Shown: piece after piece, positions 3,499-62,193 of the stretch
Layout: the number at the start of each line of letters is the position of its first letter
Numbering within the stretch: position 1 is the stretch's first letter
Origin: Candidatus Omnitrophota bacterium
Lineage (GTDB): Bacteria > Omnitrophota > Gorgyraeia > Gygaellales > Profunditerraquicolaceae
Assembly: GCA_028712255.1 (NCBI GenBank)
Contig: JAQTQJ010000009.1
Coordinates: 13,977-77,976 of the forward strand
Length of the DNA: 64,000 bases
Direction of reading: 5' to 3'
Notes under the pieces: model-generated
Told to the model about the DNA's origin: nothing
Database searches by the model: none
What the model saw: the letters and a program-made list of their open reading frames with translations, nothing else
Made by a program: the position numbers and the translations under genes

Positions 3499-3876
3499 AT
3501 GCCCACAATTGCGCAACTGATTAGATTTGGTAGGATCTCCAAAAAGAAGAAAAGTAAATCTCCTGCTTTAAAAGCTTGCCCCCAGAGAAGAGGGGTATGT
3601 ATTCAGGTGCGTACTATGACGCCTAAGAAACCTAACTCAGCTTTAAGAAAAATTGCCAGGGTTAGGCTTACTACTGGCTTAGAGGTTACCGCTTATATTC
3701 CTGGAGAAGGGCATAATCTTCAGGAACACTCCATTGTTATGGTTAGAGGAGGAAGGGTTAAAGATTTACCGGGTGTTCGTTACCATATTGTAAGAGGTAC
3801 GTTGGATGCTTCTGGTGTTAACGCACGTAGGAGAGGCCGCTCTAAATATGGAGCAAAGAGACCGAAGGCAGCTTAA
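3499..3876 (+). CDS. rpsL: 30S ribosomal protein S12
   Basis: 125 aa. Conserved S12 sequence ([10 protein letters not shown]...). str operon position. Confidence 0.95.
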
Positions 3877-4385: not shown

Positions 4386-6482
4386 ATGAGGAAGATACCA
4401 TTAGATAAAATTAGGAACATTGGGATAATTGCCCATATTGACGCCGGAAAAACTACAACTAGTGAACATGTTTTATTTTACACGGGTAAAAATTATAAAA
4501 TCGGCGAAGTGCATGACGGGGCAGCTACTATGGATTGGATGGTTCAGGAGCAGGAAAGAGGGATTACTATTACTGCCGCTGCTACTACCTGTAAATGGAA
4601 AGATATAACTATTAACTTAATCGATACCCCAGGCCACGTAGATTTTACTATCGAAGTAGAGAGATCATTAAAAGTTTTAGACGGGGCAGTGGTTGTTTTT
4701 TGTGGAGTCGGCGGAGTTGAACCACAATCAGAAACCGTTTGGCGTCAGGCAGACCGTTATGGAGTCCCTAGAATTGCTTTTGTTAATAAAATGGATCGAA
4801 CAGGAGCCGATTTTTTTGCGGCCGTTGATCAGATGCATGAAAGATTAGGTGCAAATGTCGCGCCGATTCAGCTTCCCGTCGGCAAAGAAACAGGTTTTAA
4901 CGGCTTGATTGATCTGGTTGAAAAAAAGTTTATTCATTACGAAGATGAATTAGGAAAAGAGTTTGTGATAAAAGATCTTTCAGAGGATATGATTGCCGAT
5001 TTTGAAAAATACCGTTTGGTTTTGGTTGAAAAAGTCGCCGAAGCTGATGATTTAATTATGGAGGTTTATTTACAAGGCAAAGTTGTTACTAATGAGCAGT
5101 TGAAGGCAGCAATTCGTAGAGCAGTAATTGTAAATAAATTTGTGCCGGTGCTTTGCGGCTCAGCTTTTAAGAATAAAGGCGTGCAGATGGTTTTAGACGC
5201 GGTAAAAGATTATCTTCCTTCGCCGATTGATGTTCCCCCGGTAAAAGGTACCAATCCTGATTCTGGGGAATTTGAAGAAATTAAAGCTGATGATAGTTCT
5301 CCTTTCACTGCTTTATGTTTTAAGGTAGCAACTGATCCTTTTGTCGGAAAAATATTTTTTGTAAGGATGTATTCCGGAATACTTACTTCAGGAACTTATA
5401 TTTATAATGCTTCAAAGAGGGAAAGAGAACGTGTTACTAAAATTGTTAAATTACACGCTAATCACCAGGAGATAACTGATAGCCTTTCTACGGGTGACAT
5501 TGCTGCTTTGGTAGGTTTAAAAGATACAAAAACCGGGGATACTCTTTGTACCGAAAAGAATCCTATTCTGGTTGAGGCTATGCGTTTTCCTGATCCGGTT
5601 ATTCAGCAGGCGATTGAACCTAAATCAAAAGATGCCCAGGAAAAATTGGGCATGGCGATGCATAAACTGGAAGATGAAGATCCATCATTTAGGGTTACCT
5701 ATAATCAGGAAACTGGCCAAACCCTTATTGCTGGAATGGGACAGCTACATTTGGAAATTATCGTCGATAGAATTTTACGAGAATTTAATGTTGAGGCTAC
5801 AGTCGGCGCTCCACAGGTTGCTTATCGTGAGACGATTAGAAAGAGTGTTTCTAGTGTTGGAAAATTTATTTCACAATCGGGTGGCCGTGGCCAATACGGG
5901 CATTGCGTTATTGAAATGAGCCCGCAAGAGACCCCGGGAACCGGTATTACATTTGAAGATAAAATTAAAAGTGGCGCAATTCCGCGTGAATTTATTCCTG
6001 CGGTAAAACAGGGAGTAATGGGTGCTGTTAAAAACGGAGTATTAGCAGGATATCCGGTTACCGACGTAAAAGTTGTTTTGATTGATGGATCATTCCATGA
6101 GGTCGATTCATCAGAATTAGCATTTAAAATGGCAGGATCCATTGCTTTTCAGGACGGAATGAAAAGAGCAAATCCTGTTCTATTGGAACCGATTATGGAT
6201 ATTGAGGTCGTCGTGCCTGAAGAATTTATGGGGCAGATTATCGGCGATCTAAGCAGTAGGCGAGCAAAAATAATTGCCCTTGGCCAGAGATTAAATTTGC
6301 GTACTATCCGAGCGAATGTTCCACTGTCGGAAGTTTTTAATTACGCAACAGTAACAAGATCCTTGACACAAGGCCGTGCTTCGTATACAATGGAACCTTC
6401 CTTCTACAGCGAAGTTCCAGCACATGTAGCGGAAAAAGTTATTCAAGGTTCAACAAATACAAAAGAAAGAAAAACTTTTTAA
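4386..6482 (+). CDS. fusA: elongation factor G
   Basis: 698 aa. G-domain [10 protein letters not shown] and DTPGHVDF motifs. str operon context. Confidence 0.95.
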
Positions 6483-6487
6483 TAACA

Positions 6488-6538
6488 CACCCCGCGCTTA
6501 TAAGGAATTGCGCGGGTGTGCCCTTAGGGGCAAGGAGG
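6488..6538 (+). promoter_or_regulatory. Recurrent structured leader motif, copy 1 (upstream of tuf)
   Basis: Hairpin 1: CACCCCGCGC, loop TTATAAGGAATT, GCGCGGGTG. Hairpin 2: TGCCCTTAGGGGCA. Followed by AAGGAGG, 9 nt before the ATG. Confidence 0.6.
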
Positions 6539-14153: not shown

Positions 14154-14205
14154 CACCCGGCGCTAAGCGGGATTGCGCCGGTGTTCCGCTTGTGCGGAAG
14201 GAGAG
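14154..14205 (+). promoter_or_regulatory. Recurrent structured leader motif, copy 2 (upstream of rpsH)
   Basis: Hairpin 1: CACCCGGCGC, loop TAAGCGGGATT, GCGCCGGTG. Hairpin 2: TTCCGCTTGTGCGGAA. Followed by GGAGAG SD. Stem sequences differ from copy 1 but remain complementary. Confidence 0.6.
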
Positions 14206-14209
14206 TTAA

Positions 14210-14605: not shown

Positions 14606-14657
14606 CACTTTGCGTTTATAAGGAATTACGCGGGTATGCCCTTGTGGGCAAAGGAAA
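14606..14657 (+). promoter_or_regulatory. Recurrent structured leader motif, copy 3 (upstream of rplF)
   Basis: Hairpin 1: CACTTTGCGT, loop TTATAAGGAATT, ACGCGGGT, with the stem kept by G-U wobbles at RNA level. Hairpin 2: TGCCCTTGTGGGCA. Followed by AAGGAAA, then the ATG. Confidence 0.55.
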
Positions 14658-14661
14658 ATAA

Positions 14662-20236: not shown

Positions 20237-20240
20237 TATA

Positions 20241-20290
20241 CACCCCGCGCTAATTGGTATTGCGCGGGTGTTGTCTAGGTAGACAAGGAG
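20241..20290 (+). promoter_or_regulatory. Recurrent structured leader motif, copy 4 (upstream of rpsK)
   Basis: Hairpin 1: CACCCCGCGC, loop TAATTGGTATT, GCGCGGGTG. Hairpin 2: TTGTCTAGGTAGACAA. Followed by GGAG SD. Confidence 0.6.
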
Positions 20291-20300
20291 ATAAAATAAA

Positions 20301-23000: not shown

Positions 23001-24177
23001 TATGAAAATAGATACTAGAGTTGCTGAGCGGCTGAAAAAAATAAATCCTTCCTCAACGCTGGCGATAACCTCTAAAGCTAAGAAACTTAAAAGCGAGGGT
23101 AAGGATATTGTTAGTTTTGCCGCCGGCGAACCTGATTTTGATACCCCTGACTTTGTAAAAGATGCGGCAATTGCGGCAATAAATTCAGGATTCACCAAGT
23201 ATACTCCTACCACAGGCATACCCGAATTAAAAAAACTTATTTGTCAGAAATTTAAAAAAGATAATTCTTTGGAATATGCTCCGGATCAGATCATCGTTTC
23301 CAATGGAGCAAAGCATAGCATTTTTAATGCGTTGATGGTGCTTCTAAACCGTGGTGATGAAGCACTTATTCCCCTGCCTTATTGGGTAAGTTACCCTGAG
23401 ATGGTAAATCTGTGCGAGGCAAATGTGCGTTTTATAAAAACAATCTCCGCAAATAATTTCAAAATTTCTGCAGCTGATCTTTCCAAGCATATTACTGCAA
23501 AAACCAAAATCCTTATTCTTAATAGCCCATCGAATCCGACCGGTTCTGTCTATGACCGGCAGGATTTGGAAGCTATCGCTAAAATCTGTGTGGCTAAAAA
23601 TATTTTTGTGATCAGCGATGAGATTTATGAGAAGATTACTTTTGACGGTTTAAAACATAATTCTATTGCCAGTCTAAATAAAGATATTTATAATTTAACC
23701 ATTACGGTCAATGGTTTATCTAAGAGCCATTCGATGACTGGTTGGCGTATCGGTTACCTGGGGGCTCCCAGTGATATTGCAAATGCTATTTCCAATCTGC
23801 AGGATCATACAACTTCTAATCCGAATTCTATTGCTCAGAAGGCAGCGGTGGCAGCAATGAGTGCTCCGGAAGATTTCACGCATAAATTATGCCTTGAGTT
23901 TGCCAAAAGGAGAGATTATTTGGCTGCAAGGCTTCGGGAAGTTAAGAGGCTAAGTTTTTCTATGCCGTTTGGAGCGTTCTATATGTTTTGTGATATATCT
24001 AAAACAGGCCTTGACTCTTTAACCTTTGCTAAGCGCTTGCTGGAGGAAGAATATGTAAGCGTAATTCCAGGATGCAGCTTTGGAATGGATGATCATATTA
24101 GGATAAGTTTTGCCACAAGTATTGAAGAATTACAAAAAGGAATGGATAGGATAGAGGGTTGGTTAAAGAAAATATAA
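23001..24177 (+). CDS. aminotransferase class I/II (aspartate aminotransferase-like)
   Basis: PLP fold-type I features (SKSHSMTGWRIGY, PLP-lysine context). ATG 23001 preferred over the ORF-track GTG at 22978. Confidence 0.8.
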
Positions 24178-24251
24178 ATAGGCTGTAAGTTGTAAGTCGA
24201 AAGTTTTAAGCTTAAAGCTTACGACTTATAGCTTAAAACTAAAGTTATTTT
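24178..24251. repeat. TAAGC-hexamer / AAGCTT-palindrome intergenic repeat, copy A
   Basis: GTAAGTTGTAAGTCGAAAGTTTTAAGCTTAAAGCTTACGACTTATAGCTTAAAAC. Contains inverted TAAGTCG/CGACTTA arms. Confidence 0.6.
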
Positions 24252-27079: not shown

Positions 27080-28177
27080 ATGGAATATAAAATAACTTTG
27101 ATTCCCGGAGATGGTATTGGCCAGGAAGTTTCTCTTGCAGCTACTCGATGTATTGACGCTACGGGAGTTAAGATTAAATGGGATACTGTGCTTGCAGGAA
27201 GTGTCGCCTTGGAGAAAATGGGAGAGCTCTTGCCACAGAGCGCATTAGATTCAATCAGGAAGAATAAAGTCGCTCTTAAGGGCCCGATTACTACCCCTAT
27301 TGGCACTGGATTTCGATCGGTAAATGTAGCTATTAGGCAGGCTTTAGATCTTTATGCATGCGTGCGTCCGGCAAAAAGTTATTTAGGAGTAAAAAGTATT
27401 TTTAAAGATATCGATTTGGTCATTATTAGGGAAAATAGCGAAGATCTTTACGCAGGTATAGAATTTGAAGAAGGTAAGCCTGAAACCAAAAATTTAATTG
27501 CTCAGATTCAAAAAGATACCAAGCGGATAATTCGTCAGGATTCCGGAATAACTATCAAGCCTATCTCTAAATTTGCCTCAGAAAGAATTGTAAAGTTTGC
27601 TTTTGAGTATGCTTTAAAGAATAAGCGTAAAAAAGTTACTTGTGTGCATAAGGCAAATATCATGAAATTTACCGACGGACTATTTTTAAAAGTTGCCCGG
27701 GAAGTCGCAGTAAATTATAAAGAAAAGATAATTTTTGAAGAAGCTATTGTAGATAATATTACCATGCAGCTAGTACAGAAGCCGCATAATTATGATGTTT
27801 TGGTGTTGCCCAATCTTTATGGAGATATAATTTCAGATCTTTGCGCAGGTTTGGTTGGTGGTTTAGGGGTTGCTCCGGGGGCCAATATCGGTTCTGATAT
27901 TGCGGTTTTCGAAGCAGTACATGGATCTGCGCCAAAATATCAGGGTCAGAATAAGGTTAACCCAACGGCTATGATTTTATCTGGGGTTTTGATGCTGCGG
28001 TATATTAATGAAGCTAAGGCGGCAGATAAATTAGAAGAGGCGGTAAAAGAGGTAATTAGTGAAGGTAAATTTGTAACATACGATTTAAAAAATGATCCGC
28101 TTGATTCAACTGCTGTAGGTACTGCGCAGATGGCTGATGCGATTATTGAGAAGGTTAAAAAATTAAATAAGGCATAA
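27080..28177 (+). CDS. beta-decarboxylating dehydrogenase (3-isopropylmalate/isocitrate/homoisocitrate dehydrogenase family)
   Basis: 365 aa IDH/IMDH family ([19 protein letters not shown]). Adjacent to leuCD. Confidence 0.8.
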
Positions 28178-28229
28178 GTTATAAGTGATAAGCCTTAAGC
28201 TTACAGCTTGTTTAGATTTTAGAAAACAC
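28178..28229. repeat. TAAGC-hexamer repeat, copy B
   Basis: ATAAGTTATAAGTGATAAGCCTTAAGCTTACAGCTTGTTTAGATTTTAG. Confidence 0.6.
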
Positions 28230-28275
28230 GGGACCGTTTCTATTTTTCTAAATTTAGAAAAATAGAAACGGTCCC
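28230..28275. repeat. 46-nt perfect palindrome (likely bidirectional terminator/hairpin), flanked by GTTT(T)AGATTT direct repeats
   Basis: GGGACCGTTTCTATTTTTCTAAATTTAGAAAAATAGAAACGGTCCC is its own reverse complement. Direct repeats sit at 28210-28220 and 28285-28296. Confidence 0.7.
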
Positions 28276-28314
28276 AAGATTCCAGTTTTAGATTTGTTAA
28301 AAGGGATATTTAGG

Positions 28315-30527: not shown

Positions 30528-30530
30528 GAG

Positions 30531-30609
30531 CACCTGGCCCTTAATGGAATTGGGCCAGTGTTCGCCTGGTGGCGAAGAATTGCGCGGGTGTTTCCTTGTG
30601 GGAAGGAGG
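30531..30609 (+). promoter_or_regulatory. Recurrent structured leader motif, copy 5 (tandem 1.5 copies upstream of lipoyl-domain protein)
   Basis: Full unit: CACCTGGCCC, loop TTAATGGAATT, GGGCCAGTG, then hairpin TTCGCCTGGTGGCGAA. Partial second unit: GAATT, GCGCGGGTG, then TTCCTTGTGGGAA. Followed by GGAGG. Confidence 0.55.
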
Positions 30610-30875: not shown

Positions 30876-30919
30876 AAGGGGATGGTTCTCTTAAGCAAGA
30901 GAACCATCCCCTTATTTTT
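30876..30919 (+). terminator. rho-independent terminator
   Basis: About 16-bp stem AAGGGGATGGTTCTCTT/AAGAGAACCATCCCCTT, loop AAGC, then TTATTTTT. Confidence 0.85.
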
Positions 30920-35341: not shown

Positions 35342-35394
35342 AAGATAAAGTTTATTGACAAATTAGAATGGAGTGTTAAAGTAATTAAGACAAT

Positions 35395-35600
35395 TTAGTG
35401 ATACAGGTTAAGGGAAATCCGTTTGGCCACAAGGCCATGGTTTGGCACAAAAAAGCCAAAGCCAGAAATCGGATGCGGTCCCGCCGCTGTAAAAGTTGAC
35501 GAAAGCTGCTAGCAGATAAAAGCCACTGTACTATGGAAATTAGTATGGGAAGGCGCAGCAAGTAGGATAAGACTTAAGCCAGAAGACCTGCCTGTATAAA
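35395..35600 (+). promoter_or_regulatory. cobalamin (AdoCbl) riboswitch
   Basis: GGGAAATCCG region and CCGCCGCTGTAAAAG. B12 box AGCCAGAAGACCTGCC at 35578-35593. A possible hairpin/U-rich expression platform lies further downstream at ~35643-35690. Precedes btuFCD-cobCUTS. Confidence 0.6.
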
Positions 35601-35689
35601 GAAAGTAATGCCTCGTGGAAGGGCCATAGTATTATCAGGGTGAAGCCCGATCCAGGTACCAGGAGTACCAGGTTCGGGTATTTTATTTT

Positions 35690-36517
35690 ATGAAGAAAAC
35701 TATTTTTCTAGCCGTATTTTTTGGTTTATTTTTTTACTCCACGGCTTTTGCGTATGCGCGCTATATCAGCCTTGCTCCTTCTACAACCGAGATACTTTTT
35801 GCTTTAGGGTTAGATGAAGAGATTGTGGGGGTAAGCTCGTATTGTAACTATCCGGCGCAGGCAAAAAACAAGAACAGGATTGGGGATTTTAGTAGTCCTA
35901 ATATTGAGAAGATAATTTCATTAAAGCCGGATTATATTTTTTGTACCGGCCTTGAGCAAGCGCCAGTAATTACACAGTTAAAACAGCTCAAACTTAATGT
36001 TTATGTCGCCGACCCGGTAAATGTCGAAGAGTTGTTAAAAACAATCAAAGAAATAGGAGAGATAACCAAGAGAACAAGTCAAGCAACTGTATTGATTCAA
36101 CAGATGAGAAACCAGATTCAGGCAGTAACTTCGAAGGTAGAACTTATTCCACAGGGAAAAAGGATTAAAGTTTTTCTTGAGATTTGGCATGAGCCATTAA
36201 TGACTGCGGCGGGTGGCTCTTTTGTTGACGAGTTAGTTACTCTAGCAGGAGGGATTAATATTGCTCATGATTTACCACGGCCATATTGCAGTTTTAGCGC
36301 TGAAAGTGTAATTAGCCTTAATCCTCAATGCATTATCCTGGCGTATATGGATAAGGAGGCTCCTTTAAAATTAATTAAACAGCGTTTTGGCTGGGAAAGA
36401 ATCGATGCCGTAAAGAATGGGCGGATATTCAACGATATTGATCCGGATATTTTACTTCGGCCCGGCCCAAGAATTACCAAAGGGCTTAGTCAAATTTATA
36501 AAAGATTGTACCAATAA
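35690..36517 (+). CDS. btuF: periplasmic corrinoid/siderophore-type ABC substrate-binding protein (BtuF-like)
   Basis: Signal peptide and class III PBP fold. Riboswitch-controlled, followed by FecCD permease and ATPase. Confidence 0.7.
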   Translation: MKKTIFLAVFFGLFFYSTAFAYARYISLAPSTTEILFALGLDEEIVGVSSYCNYPAQAKNKNRIGDFSSPNIEKIISLKPDYIFCTGLEQAPVITQLKQLKLNVYVADPVNVEELLKTIKEIGEITKRTSQATVLIQQMRNQIQAVTSKVELIPQGKRIKVFLEIWHEPLMTAAGGSFVDELVTLAGGINIAHDLPRPYCSFSAESVISLNPQCIILAYMDKEAPLKLIKQRFGWERIDAVKNGRIFNDIDPDILLRPGPRITKGLSQIYKRLYQ

Positions 36518-47812: not shown

Positions 47813-48359
47813 AATTAAATCAGGGGTAACTATTTTAGTCGATGGTGATGTCTACGTTTGCCTTGACGCTCAGCATGTCAAGCCCGGTAAGGGGGCAGCT
47901 TTTGTGCGAGCGCGCCTGCGTAATATGAAAAATAATAATATCCAGGAGAAAACCTTCCGCGGAGATGATAAGATAGAACAGGCTTTTATTGAGGAACGAA
48001 AGTTGCAATATCAATATTCAAGCGGTGGGATGTTCCATTTTATGGATACTGAAAATTTTGAAGAGATTGCTATTTCGCAAGAGAGTGTTGGAGATAATGC
48101 CAAACTCCTGAAGGATAATCTTGAGATTCAGGGTTATTTTTATAAAGGCCAGACCTTATCCATTACTTTGCCCAATTTTATTGAATTCAATATTATCGAA
48201 ACTGAGCCGGGTATAAAAGGCGATTCATCAAAGAGTGGGACAAAACCTGCTACTGTTGATACCGGCACAACTATCCAGGTTCCTTTATTTATTAATGTAG
48301 GAGACAAGATCAAAGTAGACACGCGAACCGGTGGCACCTATGTTGAGAGGATTAATTGA
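47793..48359 (+). CDS. efp: elongation factor P
   Basis: 188 aa with KPGKG loop and three OB-like domains. Confidence 0.9.
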   Translation: MALSINEIKSGVTILVDGDVYVCLDAQHVKPGKGAAFVRARLRNMKNNNIQEKTFRGDDKIEQAFIEERKLQYQYSSGGMFHFMDTENFEEIAISQESVGDNAKLLKDNLEIQGYFYKGQTLSITLPNFIEFNIIETEPGIKGDSSKSGTKPATVDTGTTIQVPLFINVGDKIKVDTRTGGTYVERIN

Positions 48360-48480
48360 GTTTAAACTCTAAATAAGCTCTAAGCCATAAGCGATAAGCT
48401 GTAAGCTTACAGCTTAAAACTTACAACTTAAAGCTTTTGTTTTGAAGTTTTGAGTTTTAGTGTTTTAGAATTTAAGGATT
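48360..48480. repeat. TAAGC-hexamer / AAGCTT-palindrome intergenic repeat, copy C, plus GTTTTRAG octamer tandem
   Basis: AAATAAGCTCTAAGCCATAAGCGATAAGCTGTAAGCTTACAGCTTAAAACTTACAACTTAAAGCTT, including the 20-nt perfect palindrome AAGCTGTAAGCTTACAGCTT (48396-48415). Followed by GTTTTGAAGTTTTGAGTTTTAGTGTTTTAG. Confidence 0.65.
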
Positions 48481-52444: not shown

Positions 52445-52467
52445 GAAAGCGTAAAATATAAACCTAT

Positions 52468-52517
52468 CACCCAGCGCTAAGTGGAATTGCCGCTGGTGTG
52501 CCCTTGTGGGTAAGGAG
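52468..52517 (+). promoter_or_regulatory. Recurrent structured leader motif, copy 6 (upstream of gmhA)
   Basis: Hairpin 1: CACCCAGCGC, loop TAAGTGGAATT, GCCGCTGGTG. Hairpin 2: TGCCCTTGTGGGTA. Followed by AGGAG. Confidence 0.55.
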
Positions 52518-52522
52518 AAAAA

Positions 52523-61831: not shown

Positions 61832-62119
61832 ATGTCAATGCATCCGTCATTAACTATTTCGGAAAAGGACAAGAAGGTCCGCTCGGTATTGAAACGTTCT
61901 GAGCGCATAAAACTGATGCAAGAAAAAAGTAAATGGCAGCAAGGTGATTCGGTTTATGGCCTTCCGAAGCTCAAATCTTTAAGGATTAAGATTAAAAAGG
62001 AAAAAGTTGAAAAAGCTGAAAGCGCAACTGCGCAGGCTGCTACACCAGCAGCTGGTGCTACTAAAGAAGCTGCCAAAGCTGCTCCTAAAGCTGCCGCCAA
62101 GGCTCAAGAGAAGAAATAA
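61832..62119 (+). CDS. small basic protein Sbp-like (A/K-rich histone-H1-like tail)
   Basis: N-terminus MHPSLTIS...VRSVLKRSER resembles the Sbp family I recall from PVC-group bacteria. C-terminal AKAAPKAAAKA tail. Confidence 0.45.
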   Translation: MSMHPSLTISEKDKKVRSVLKRSERIKLMQEKSKWQQGDSVYGLPKLKSLRIKIKKEKVEKAESATAQAATPAAGATKEAAKAAPKAAAKAQEKK

Positions 62120-62193
62120 AATTTGATTATAAGCTTTAAGCTGTAAGTTTTAAGCTATAAGCTTAAGGGTTATCGCTTGCAGCTTACTTAAAT
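62120..62193. repeat. TAAGC-hexamer intergenic repeat, copy D
   Basis: ATAAGCTTTAAGCTGTAAGTTTTAAGCTATAAGCTTAAGGGTTATCGCTTGCAGCTTACTTA. Confidence 0.6.

Follow-up and report, generated by a model that had tools for sequence, protein, structure and literature searches.

What is the array of short repeats that lies between efp and accB in an Omnitrophota genome, and does it do anything there? We analysed a 64-kb stretch of DNA from Candidatus Omnitrophota (G+C about 39%; hereafter the window), in which the original prediction had placed arrays of this kind at four loci, read them as hexamers folding into hairpins at gene 3' ends, and proposed a role as terminators or mRNA-stability hairpins. All four loci were confirmed by sequence reading and by a scan for phased units; we refer to them as elements A to D, element C being the one behind efp (Table 1). 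The interpretation that we favour, and to which we give a probability of roughly 0.55, is that they are dispersed elements with heptad arms, resembling the short tandemly repeated repetitive (STRR) sequences of cyanobacteria and the REPINs. Each would have been inserted as a unit into an operon junction, would be co-transcribed with the flanking genes and fold into a hairpin, and would be nearly neutral or mildly modulating.

Repeat Unit and Layout of the Four Elements

Tandem Repeats Finder (TRF), run on the window, returned a period of 7 at 24184-24237, 28174-28192, 48373-48436, and 62130-62164, in agreement with the phased-unit scan. The unit is thus a heptad and not the hexamer initially described. 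In register it reads TAAG(C/T)NN, a pentamer followed by two free bases. Each locus carries four to five such forward units and then two to five inverted NNGCTTA units, the switch between the two orientations falling on an 8-nt palindrome, TAAGCTTA, common to all four loci. This centre and TAAG(C/T) at a 7-nt phase are the only parts that the four copies have in common; spacers and unit numbers vary. The perfect 20-nt palindrome reported for element C at 48396-48415 is genuine and extends to 22 nt (48395-48416). Its core does recur at element B, as had been noticed, but TAAGCTTACAGCTT occupies 28196-28209 and not 28195-28208, one base off. In element B the stop codon of leuB (28175-28177) is the TAA of a repeat unit.

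The two parts of the unit behave differently. In element C the pentamer core is kept at 25/25 bases, whereas the spacer departs from TT at 6/10 positions, neighbouring units carrying TC, CA, GA, TG, and TT at positions 6-7. The identical units of a slippage-type simple repeat were thus not found, the pentamer being kept while positions 6-7 vary. A conserved core combined with varying spacers is not what the uniform decay of a slippage product would leave.

Base composition, which could have explained the repeat frequencies trivially, does not. With one mismatch allowed, the window contains six phased arrays of at least four units and seven of at least three, versus no array of at least four units and a mean of 0.025 arrays of at least three in 200 composition-matched, first-order Markov simulations of the window. 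TAAGC and GCTTA together reach 48.5 copies per kb in the four spacers versus 2.8 per kb elsewhere, a 17-fold difference, and the sole match in coding DNA is a 3-unit array at 3677 that we judged to be due to chance. The arrays are thus shown to be non-random and, this one match apart, strictly intergenic.

The flanking genes are functionally unrelated according to Pfam: an aminotransferase and an aconitase-family LeuC for element A, isopropylmalate dehydrogenase and malate/lactate dehydrogenase for B, EF-P and biotin carboxyl carrier protein for C, and an SH3-domain protein downstream of D, where the 95-aa Ala/Lys-rich protein encoded upstream had no Pfam match. That all copies lie downstream of stop codons, as originally pointed out, is true and yet uninformative, because all genes of the window are on the + strand and each spacer comes after a stop and before a start. 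The GC skew is likewise strong and uniform (+0.13 to +0.27), and together with the gene orientation this suggests a single leading-strand replichore for the entire window.

Table 1. Coordinates of elements A to D, of their parts, and of other features in the window.
Feature	Position	Units or sequence	Context	Basis
Element A	24179-24235		Gap between aminotransferase gene (stop 24175-24177) and leuC (start 24252)	Sequence reading, TRF
Element A, forward units	24179-24211	TAGGC TG / TAAGT TG / TAAGT CG / AAAGT TT / TAAGC		
Element A, centre	24207-24214	TAAGCTTA		Sequence reading
Element A, inverted units	24210-24235	GCTTA AA / GCTTA CG / ACTTA TA / GCTTA		
Element B	28168-28210	Forward TAAGG, TAAGT, TAAGT, TAAGC, TAAGC	Overlaps 3' end of leuB, before mdh	
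Element B, centre	28196-28203	TAAGCTTA		Sequence reading
Element B, inverted arm		Short: GCTTA CA GCTTG		
Element C	48374-48437		Gap between efp (stop 48357-48359) and accB (GTG start 48508); focal locus	
Element C, forward arm	48374-48406	Five exact TAAGCNN		
Element C, centre	48402-48409	TAAGCTTA		Sequence reading
Element C, inverted arm	48405-48437	Five inverted units		
Outer imperfect inverted repeat	48361-48476	TTAAAYTCTAAA on either side	Around element C	Outer stem in computed fold
Element D	62130-62186		Gap between gene of 95-aa Ala/Lys-rich protein (stop 62117-62119) and SH3-domain gene (start 62194)	
Element D, forward units		TAAGC, TAAGC, TAAGT, TAAGC, TAAGC		
Element D, centre	62158-62165	TAAGCTTA		Sequence reading
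Element D, inverted units		GCTTA, GGTTA, GCTTG, GCTTA		
Second hairpin family	6483-6517, 14155-14209, 14606-14661, 20237-20300, 30528-30557 (tandem double), 52445-52522		Intergenic	
Cobalamin riboswitch	35388-35609		Upstream of gene at 35690	Rfam RF00174, 86 bits

Two further repeats adjoin these elements. In the right half of the outer inverted repeat, element C is followed by an array of 7-8-nt GTTTTGA(A) units (48439-48470), for which TRF gave the consensus GTTTTGAA at 48439-48458; at some Bacteroidota loci (L083, L100), arrays of the AAGTTT type similarly adjoin TAAGC arrays. A candidate promoter in the same segment (48442-48471, TTGAAG-18-TAGAAT) was rejected, being a weak match that shuffled sequence equals in score. 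Just 5' of element D, the gene of the 95-aa protein contains a coding tandem repeat with a period of 12/24 nt (62056-62104).

Comparison With Related Genomes

No TAAGC array was found in 710 kb from 80 related loci, whose LeuB is 65-84% identical to that of the window, and roughly 70 kb surrounding efp in relatives contained none either. The orthologous gaps range from overlapping to about 30 nt in most relatives, a few lineages having longer, unrelated inserts. Between the aminotransferase gene and leuC, the distance is -20 to +28 nt in 10/11 relatives, often with an overlapping ATGA, versus 74 nt in the window; the eleventh relative has an unrelated 70-nt hairpin. The leuB-mdh gap measures 0-35 nt in 11/14 close relatives versus 116 nt in the window. 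The efp-accB gap was compared in relatives whose EF-P is 89-93% identical to that of the window and is reduced to 12-13 nt in L001 and L127 and to 0 nt in L004/L005.

Exact insert boundaries were mapped at 62120, the other three junctions being too diverged for this. At this junction a 53-nt block, TAAGCTT...GCAGCTTA, stands as a discrete insert between the conserved flanks gatta and ct(c)tta. The corresponding empty site of L589/L590 (SH3 protein 79% identical) is a 21-nt spacer, aattacgatta / ctcttagcat, which lacks 53-57 nt of element D and contains no TAAGC seed unit. A possible duplication of TTA at 62120 is indistinguishable from the terminal GCTTA unit.

Elements A to D were thus shown to lie where most relatives have a tight or overlapping junction, with one discrete insert at 62120, and the arrays, absent from all sampled relatives, are to all appearances recent, lineage-specific insertions. 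Given how little space most relatives leave at these junctions, co-transcription of leuC, mdh, accB, and the SH3 gene with the genes that precede them is very probable. Two 1.6-kb contigs from other sequencing runs were 100% identical to the window, and no strain variation could therefore be read there.

The efp-accB junction has received other inserts elsewhere: a (CCTG)2CC.GG(CAGG)2 palindrome in L128 (822-870), a conserved GC-rich motif in L129 (950-989), and another hairpin downstream of efp in L126 and L003. With a different insert in nearly every lineage, or no more than 0-13 nt where there is none, this junction either attracts hairpins as an insertion hot spot or has had a hairpin selected on it repeatedly.

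Facing Heptad Arrays in Other Genomes

In a scan of 185,579 genomes, four consecutive TAAGCNN units occurred at no fewer than 120 loci from many phyla, and viral contigs contributed 59 loci. Control heptads of the same composition gave 33 (TAACG), 58 (GATAC), at least 120 (CGAAT), and at least 120 (AGTCA) loci in the viral contigs. The idea that TAAGC is a pan-bacterial conserved signal was ruled out, since control heptads are equally or more frequent; the breadth of its distribution reflects the general abundance of heptad repeats. Many of the TAAGC arrays found elsewhere are perfectly homogeneous, as in (TAAGCCG)n. The facing layout also occurs with other heptads in related Omnitrophota (AAYCAGW...CTGGTTA in L546, GGTTTAG...CTAAACC in L562, and ATTGATA...ATCAATC in L572), and 40 further facing elements with many different cores were present in the DNA that we fetched. 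Heptad arrays, often facing, are thus a general class that is far commoner than expected by chance.

We then considered 25 facing TAAGC elements from the window and from other genomes. Spacer bases of opposite arms formed Watson-Crick pairs at 56/156 positions, versus 49.8 +/- 5.5 after permutation. Since the spacers pair at chance level, the complementarity of the arms comes from the inversion of a conserved motif and not from the upkeep of a stem. The order of the arms is fixed: among the matches listed from the 120 or more genome loci, the GCTTA array lies downstream of the TAAGC array in 26 loci and upstream in none, a second method gave 29 elements versus 1, and CGAAT arrays gave 14 versus 0. 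The conserved pentamer, the non-complementary spacer pairs, and the fixed polarity together argue against simple slippage and against a selected stem.

A biased sample of 49 heptad families, from genome and viral contigs fetched by pattern (L006-L506), showed one polarity per family; G exceeded C in the 5' arm of 28 families and fell below it in 7 (p ~0.0005), and this arm was purine-rich in 34 versus 15. The TAA repeated every 7 nt does place stop codons in all three frames, but a stop-first rule was dropped as a general explanation, other heptad families being split about 11 versus 9 between stop-first and stop-last when the heptads used as search patterns were excluded.

Among the matches listed, facing TAAGC elements of other genomes lie between convergent genes in 11 cases, between tandem genes in 12, between divergent genes at one locus, and inside an open reading frame (ORF) in 1. 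Most sit no more than about 20 nt from the nearest stop codon, which in some cases is part of the element itself. Such placement is typical of extragenic elements that are tolerated, for example the repetitive extragenic palindromic (REP) sequences.

Relation to Known Repeats and Proposed Origin

Searches with sequence strings and keywords retrieved no published description of TAAGC heptads. The closest known counterparts are the cyanobacterial STRR, whose 7-bp repeats fold into hairpins within operon spacers, hupS-hupL among them, and for which roles in transcript stability or translational coupling have been proposed (PMC2670836); other dispersed heptads, such as TTGTCAG and ATTGCGA, are known from Nostoc (PMC2408588). 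Both systems consist of tandem 7-nt units dispersed over intergenic regions and able to form hairpins inside operon spacers, the dispersal being evident here from four spacers in 64 kb, coding DNA having the single 3-unit match mentioned above. The window elements differ from STRR in their host, in their heptad, in combining a fixed pentamer with two free positions in place of identical units, and in that a shared 8-nt palindrome joins two facing arrays in every copy. We use the label "STRR-like" and not STRR, because the latter is defined for heterocystous/filamentous cyanobacteria and our host belongs to Candidatus Omnitrophota.

Heptamer families specific to one genome have also been described in a genome of the marine Beggiatoaceae, with 169 direct sets of TAACTGA repeats versus one inverted set (MacGregor, 2015, PMC4679880), and in Geobacter metallireducens (GGGACCG and MTYCTGA; PMC2700814). 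They share with the window elements a large number of intergenic sites and a patchy phylogenetic distribution, and some of their copies lie directly upstream of starts that lack a Shine-Dalgarno sequence, as is the case for leuC and the SH3 gene in the window. In contrast, those repeats are almost all direct, whereas the four elements of the window are all inverted pairs, with a different heptad.

Likeness to REP sequences and bacterial interspersed mosaic elements had been part of the original prediction, and it holds as an analogy. Like the REP/BIME/REPIN group, the window elements are extragenic, hairpin-forming, multicopy, and lineage-specific, are located within operons or at the 3' ends of genes, and are built from an inverted pair of arms, as seen from their folds and intergenic positions. 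Membership in the REP family failed on sequence conservation from copy to copy: REP copies share a conserved stretch of 20-35 nt, whereas the window copies share only the phased pentamer and the TAAGCTTA centre, and a modular 7-nt build is not a feature of REP. REPINs are inverted REP doublets mobilised by RAYT transposases. With the miniature inverted-repeat transposable elements (MITEs), the family shares the discrete insertion seen at 62120 by comparison with L589/L590, although the window copies are not near-identical. The best reading by comparison is that the window element would be an Omnitrophota counterpart of the cyanobacterial STRR hairpins with a REPIN- or MITE-like behaviour.

Under this reading, the elements would arrive as whole units and would not grow from a local seed. 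They would be copied by some activity that reads the pentamer in one orientation only, which would account for a core that is conserved, a spacer that is free, and a polarity that does not change; unit number would then drift through slippage. Once transcribed within the polycistronic mRNA, the insert would form an imperfect hairpin of 5-bp blocks parted by 2x2 mismatches, which may tuck it away and bring the upstream stop codon beside the downstream start codon. The effect on expression would be nearly neutral or, as for REP, modest, either protecting the upstream mRNA segment or partly uncoupling the neighbouring cistrons.

Several observations weigh against this scheme. The four copies are not recent copies of one master, because their spacer bases and unit numbers differ. 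Across 27 elements we found no clear target-site duplication or common flanking sequence, and no transposase or candidate recogniser was identified within the window, whose ORFs were not all scanned for transposase domains. The coexistence of several heptads in one relative (L546) is easier to reconcile with a general process that generates repeats than with a dedicated protein for each motif. Finally, the different hairpin inserts acquired by different lineages at efp-accB could mean repeated selection, in which case the element would be functional and not neutral.

Alternative Origins: Slippage and Protein Binding

The best placed of the alternatives, although we consider it improbable, is that the arrays are pure microsatellites formed in situ by local slippage, with the facing layout produced at the self-complementary AAGCTT of TAAGCTT units by intrastrand template switching, which lengthens a quasi-palindrome, and with no sequence-specific factor. 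According to Mrazek (2007), as summarised in PMC4679880, no long simple repeats are more abundant in prokaryotes than heptanucleotides, and this has been put down to polymerase slippage. The control heptads as common as TAAGC in viral contigs, the homogeneous arrays of other genomes, and the several heptads present together in L546 agree with such an origin. All four elements are moreover centred on TAAGCTTA, with T as the usual base at position 6, which fits an AAGCTT+N ancestor, and a sister lineage has its own palindrome, that of L128, at the efp junction. However, slippage in place does not account for a single heptad at four unlinked loci that is absent from about 780 kb of relatives, nor for the missing seed unit in the 62120 empty site. 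Neither are spacers that vary between adjacent units, next to an intact pentamer, expected from it, and the 26 versus 0 polarity is unpredicted, as template switching can give either order.

Somewhat more doubtful is the possibility that the arrays are binding sites for an oligomeric host protein that reads the pentamer every 7 nt and regulates or insulates the neighbouring genes. Precedents exist, the omega ribbon-helix-helix repressor of pSM19035 polymerising on contiguous heptads in direct and converging orientation and HutP reading NAG triplets in RNA at 7-nt spacing. The window elements likewise repeat a conserved core in contiguous 7-nt units that run in the same direction or converge, and the comparison with an array of protein-binding half-sites, put forward from the outset, is reasonable as an analogy. 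The resemblance to omega arrays extends to orientation, converging units being favoured there and the converging arrangement alone being seen here. The strict 7-nt phase, the conserved pentamer, and the free 2-nt spacer are also what a protein-binding array would show, as is the lack of complementarity between the spacers of the two arms, which suggests that it is the motif that is conserved and not the stem. But the omega arrays are found at a few plasmid promoters with a known cognate protein, whereas those of the window are chromosomal and lie between housekeeping genes. A conserved regulatory role is contradicted by the absence of the arrays from close relatives with the same operons. The flanking genes have no common function, the heptads differ by lineage, with several in some genomes, and no candidate protein was identified.

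Folding and the Terminator Question

All four elements do fold into hairpins, as anticipated, and do so better than shuffled sequence (z -3 to -7). The + strand RNA of element A reaches -27.2 kcal/mol (z -5.4) with a continuous 19-bp stem including 4 G-U pairs. For element C, the values are -33.7 kcal/mol on the + strand and -40.3 kcal/mol (z -7.3) on the - strand, and for element D, whose fold spans 62121-62193, they are -26.3 and -19.2 kcal/mol, respectively. The folds of A and D take in nearly the whole insert: the upstream stop codon lies 1 nt before the stem, and the downstream start codon is found 16 nt past the stem in A and immediately past it in D.

These folds could be read as 3'-end hairpins kept by selection, either as factor-independent or bidirectional terminators or as mRNA stabilisers. 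We regard this as less probable again than an array of binding sites, in spite of the folding energies and of three further observations in its favour: TTTTGTTTTG comes 3' of element C, facing TAAGC elements elsewhere lie close to stop codons (within about 20 nt) with 11/25 between convergent genes, and the efp-accB junction has gained different hairpins in several lineages. A terminator consensus scan found no terminator-like site at any of the four arrays, because none has a U-tract; a T-rich tail exists only at element C, behind the mismatched outer stem. The arrays do not appear to mark the ends of transcription units either, judging from junctions that are overlapping to about 30 nt in most relatives, and efficient termination there would silence leuC, leuD, leuB, accB, and accC. 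The terminator role assigned to the arrays is therefore unsupported: without U-tracts, and located inside conserved operons, they are not canonical terminators. Their modular build is indeed unlike that of ordinary terminators, as had been remarked, and they form a genuine extragenic, hairpin-capable family.

Other expectations of a selected hairpin failed as well. The better-folding strand is inconsistent (+ for A and D, - for C), and complementary spacer pairs, expected in a continuous selected stem, were not seen, spacer pairing being at chance level, so that such a stem was ruled out. The evident terminator-type hairpins of the window are built differently, the one at 28229-28276 being a perfect stem and that at 30876-30919 being flanked by A and T tracts. 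The TTAAGC in the loop of the latter, once counted as a member of the family, is a lone pentamer among 104 copies in the window and thus a coincidence. Rfam gave no match at gathering thresholds for the window arrays or for 18 loci with similar elements from other genomes; below threshold, only generic long-hairpin (miRNA-precursor) models appeared. As for the idea that a common oligomer merely happened to cluster in an AT-rich genome, the window does contain 104 copies of TAAGC and 93 of GCTTA, both of them ordinary pentamers, but the simulations and the 17-fold density in the spacers have already refuted it, and we give it practically no credit.

Just 3' of element B lies a perfect hairpin of about 21 bp (28229-28276, GGGACCGTTTCTATTTTTCTAAA / TTTAGAAAAATAGAAACGGTCCC, -43 kcal/mol) with a terminator-like call on the - strand only; a similar hairpin is present at the same leuB-mdh junction in L518 (~5480-5540). 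The starts of leuC and of the SH3 gene are located 16 nt and 7 nt past the last heptad (24236-24251 and 62187-62193), that is, 0-16 nt past the folded stem. Neither gene has a recognisable Shine-Dalgarno sequence; most other genes of the window have AGGAG-type sites, and the 21-nt spacer that precedes the SH3 gene in the relative also lacks one.

Implications

The family is new and comes from a little-studied, uncultivated phylum, although its kind was already known from STRR-type heptads. It shows that tightly packed and even overlapping operon junctions can take self-folding inserts of 50-120 nt with the downstream genes retained. It also adds three constraints for any explanation of such repeats: a conserved core next to a free spacer, arms whose complementarity is not maintained at the spacers, and a fixed orientation. 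Neither slippage nor hairpin selection explains these constraints on its own.

A wider proposal, which we also hold to be unlikely, is that facing heptad arrays in general are a widespread, unrecognised inserted element of fixed polarity. Its marks would be a conserved pentamer read at every seventh nucleotide, a free 2-nt spacer, arms that converge without exception, and an excess of G and purines in the 5' arm, and some heptad-reading activity would write or move it in trans. This activity might be a transposase-like or ribbon-helix-helix-like protein, or a process linked to the polymerase. If true, it would also explain the origin of STRR and the excess of heptanucleotide repeats in prokaryotes.

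Additional Features of the Window

A second intergenic hairpin family, unrelated to the heptad arrays, occurs in the window (Table 1) and in relatives (L003 14551, L004 8253, L005 8910, L129 955). It had no match in Rfam. Its members have a GC-rich stem, ACACCCnGCGC / GCGCnGGGTG, around a conserved loop, T(A/G)AnnGGnATT. Most copies are followed by a small second hairpin, tgcccttgtgggca, and by an AGGAG ribosome-binding site, some 8 nt ahead of the start codon. This family differs from the heptad arrays in being conserved at the orthologous PFK-SIS junction of relatives, and it is found after efp in L129; it has the look of a structured leader or processing element shared across the clade. The window also contains the cobalamin riboswitch listed in Table 1.

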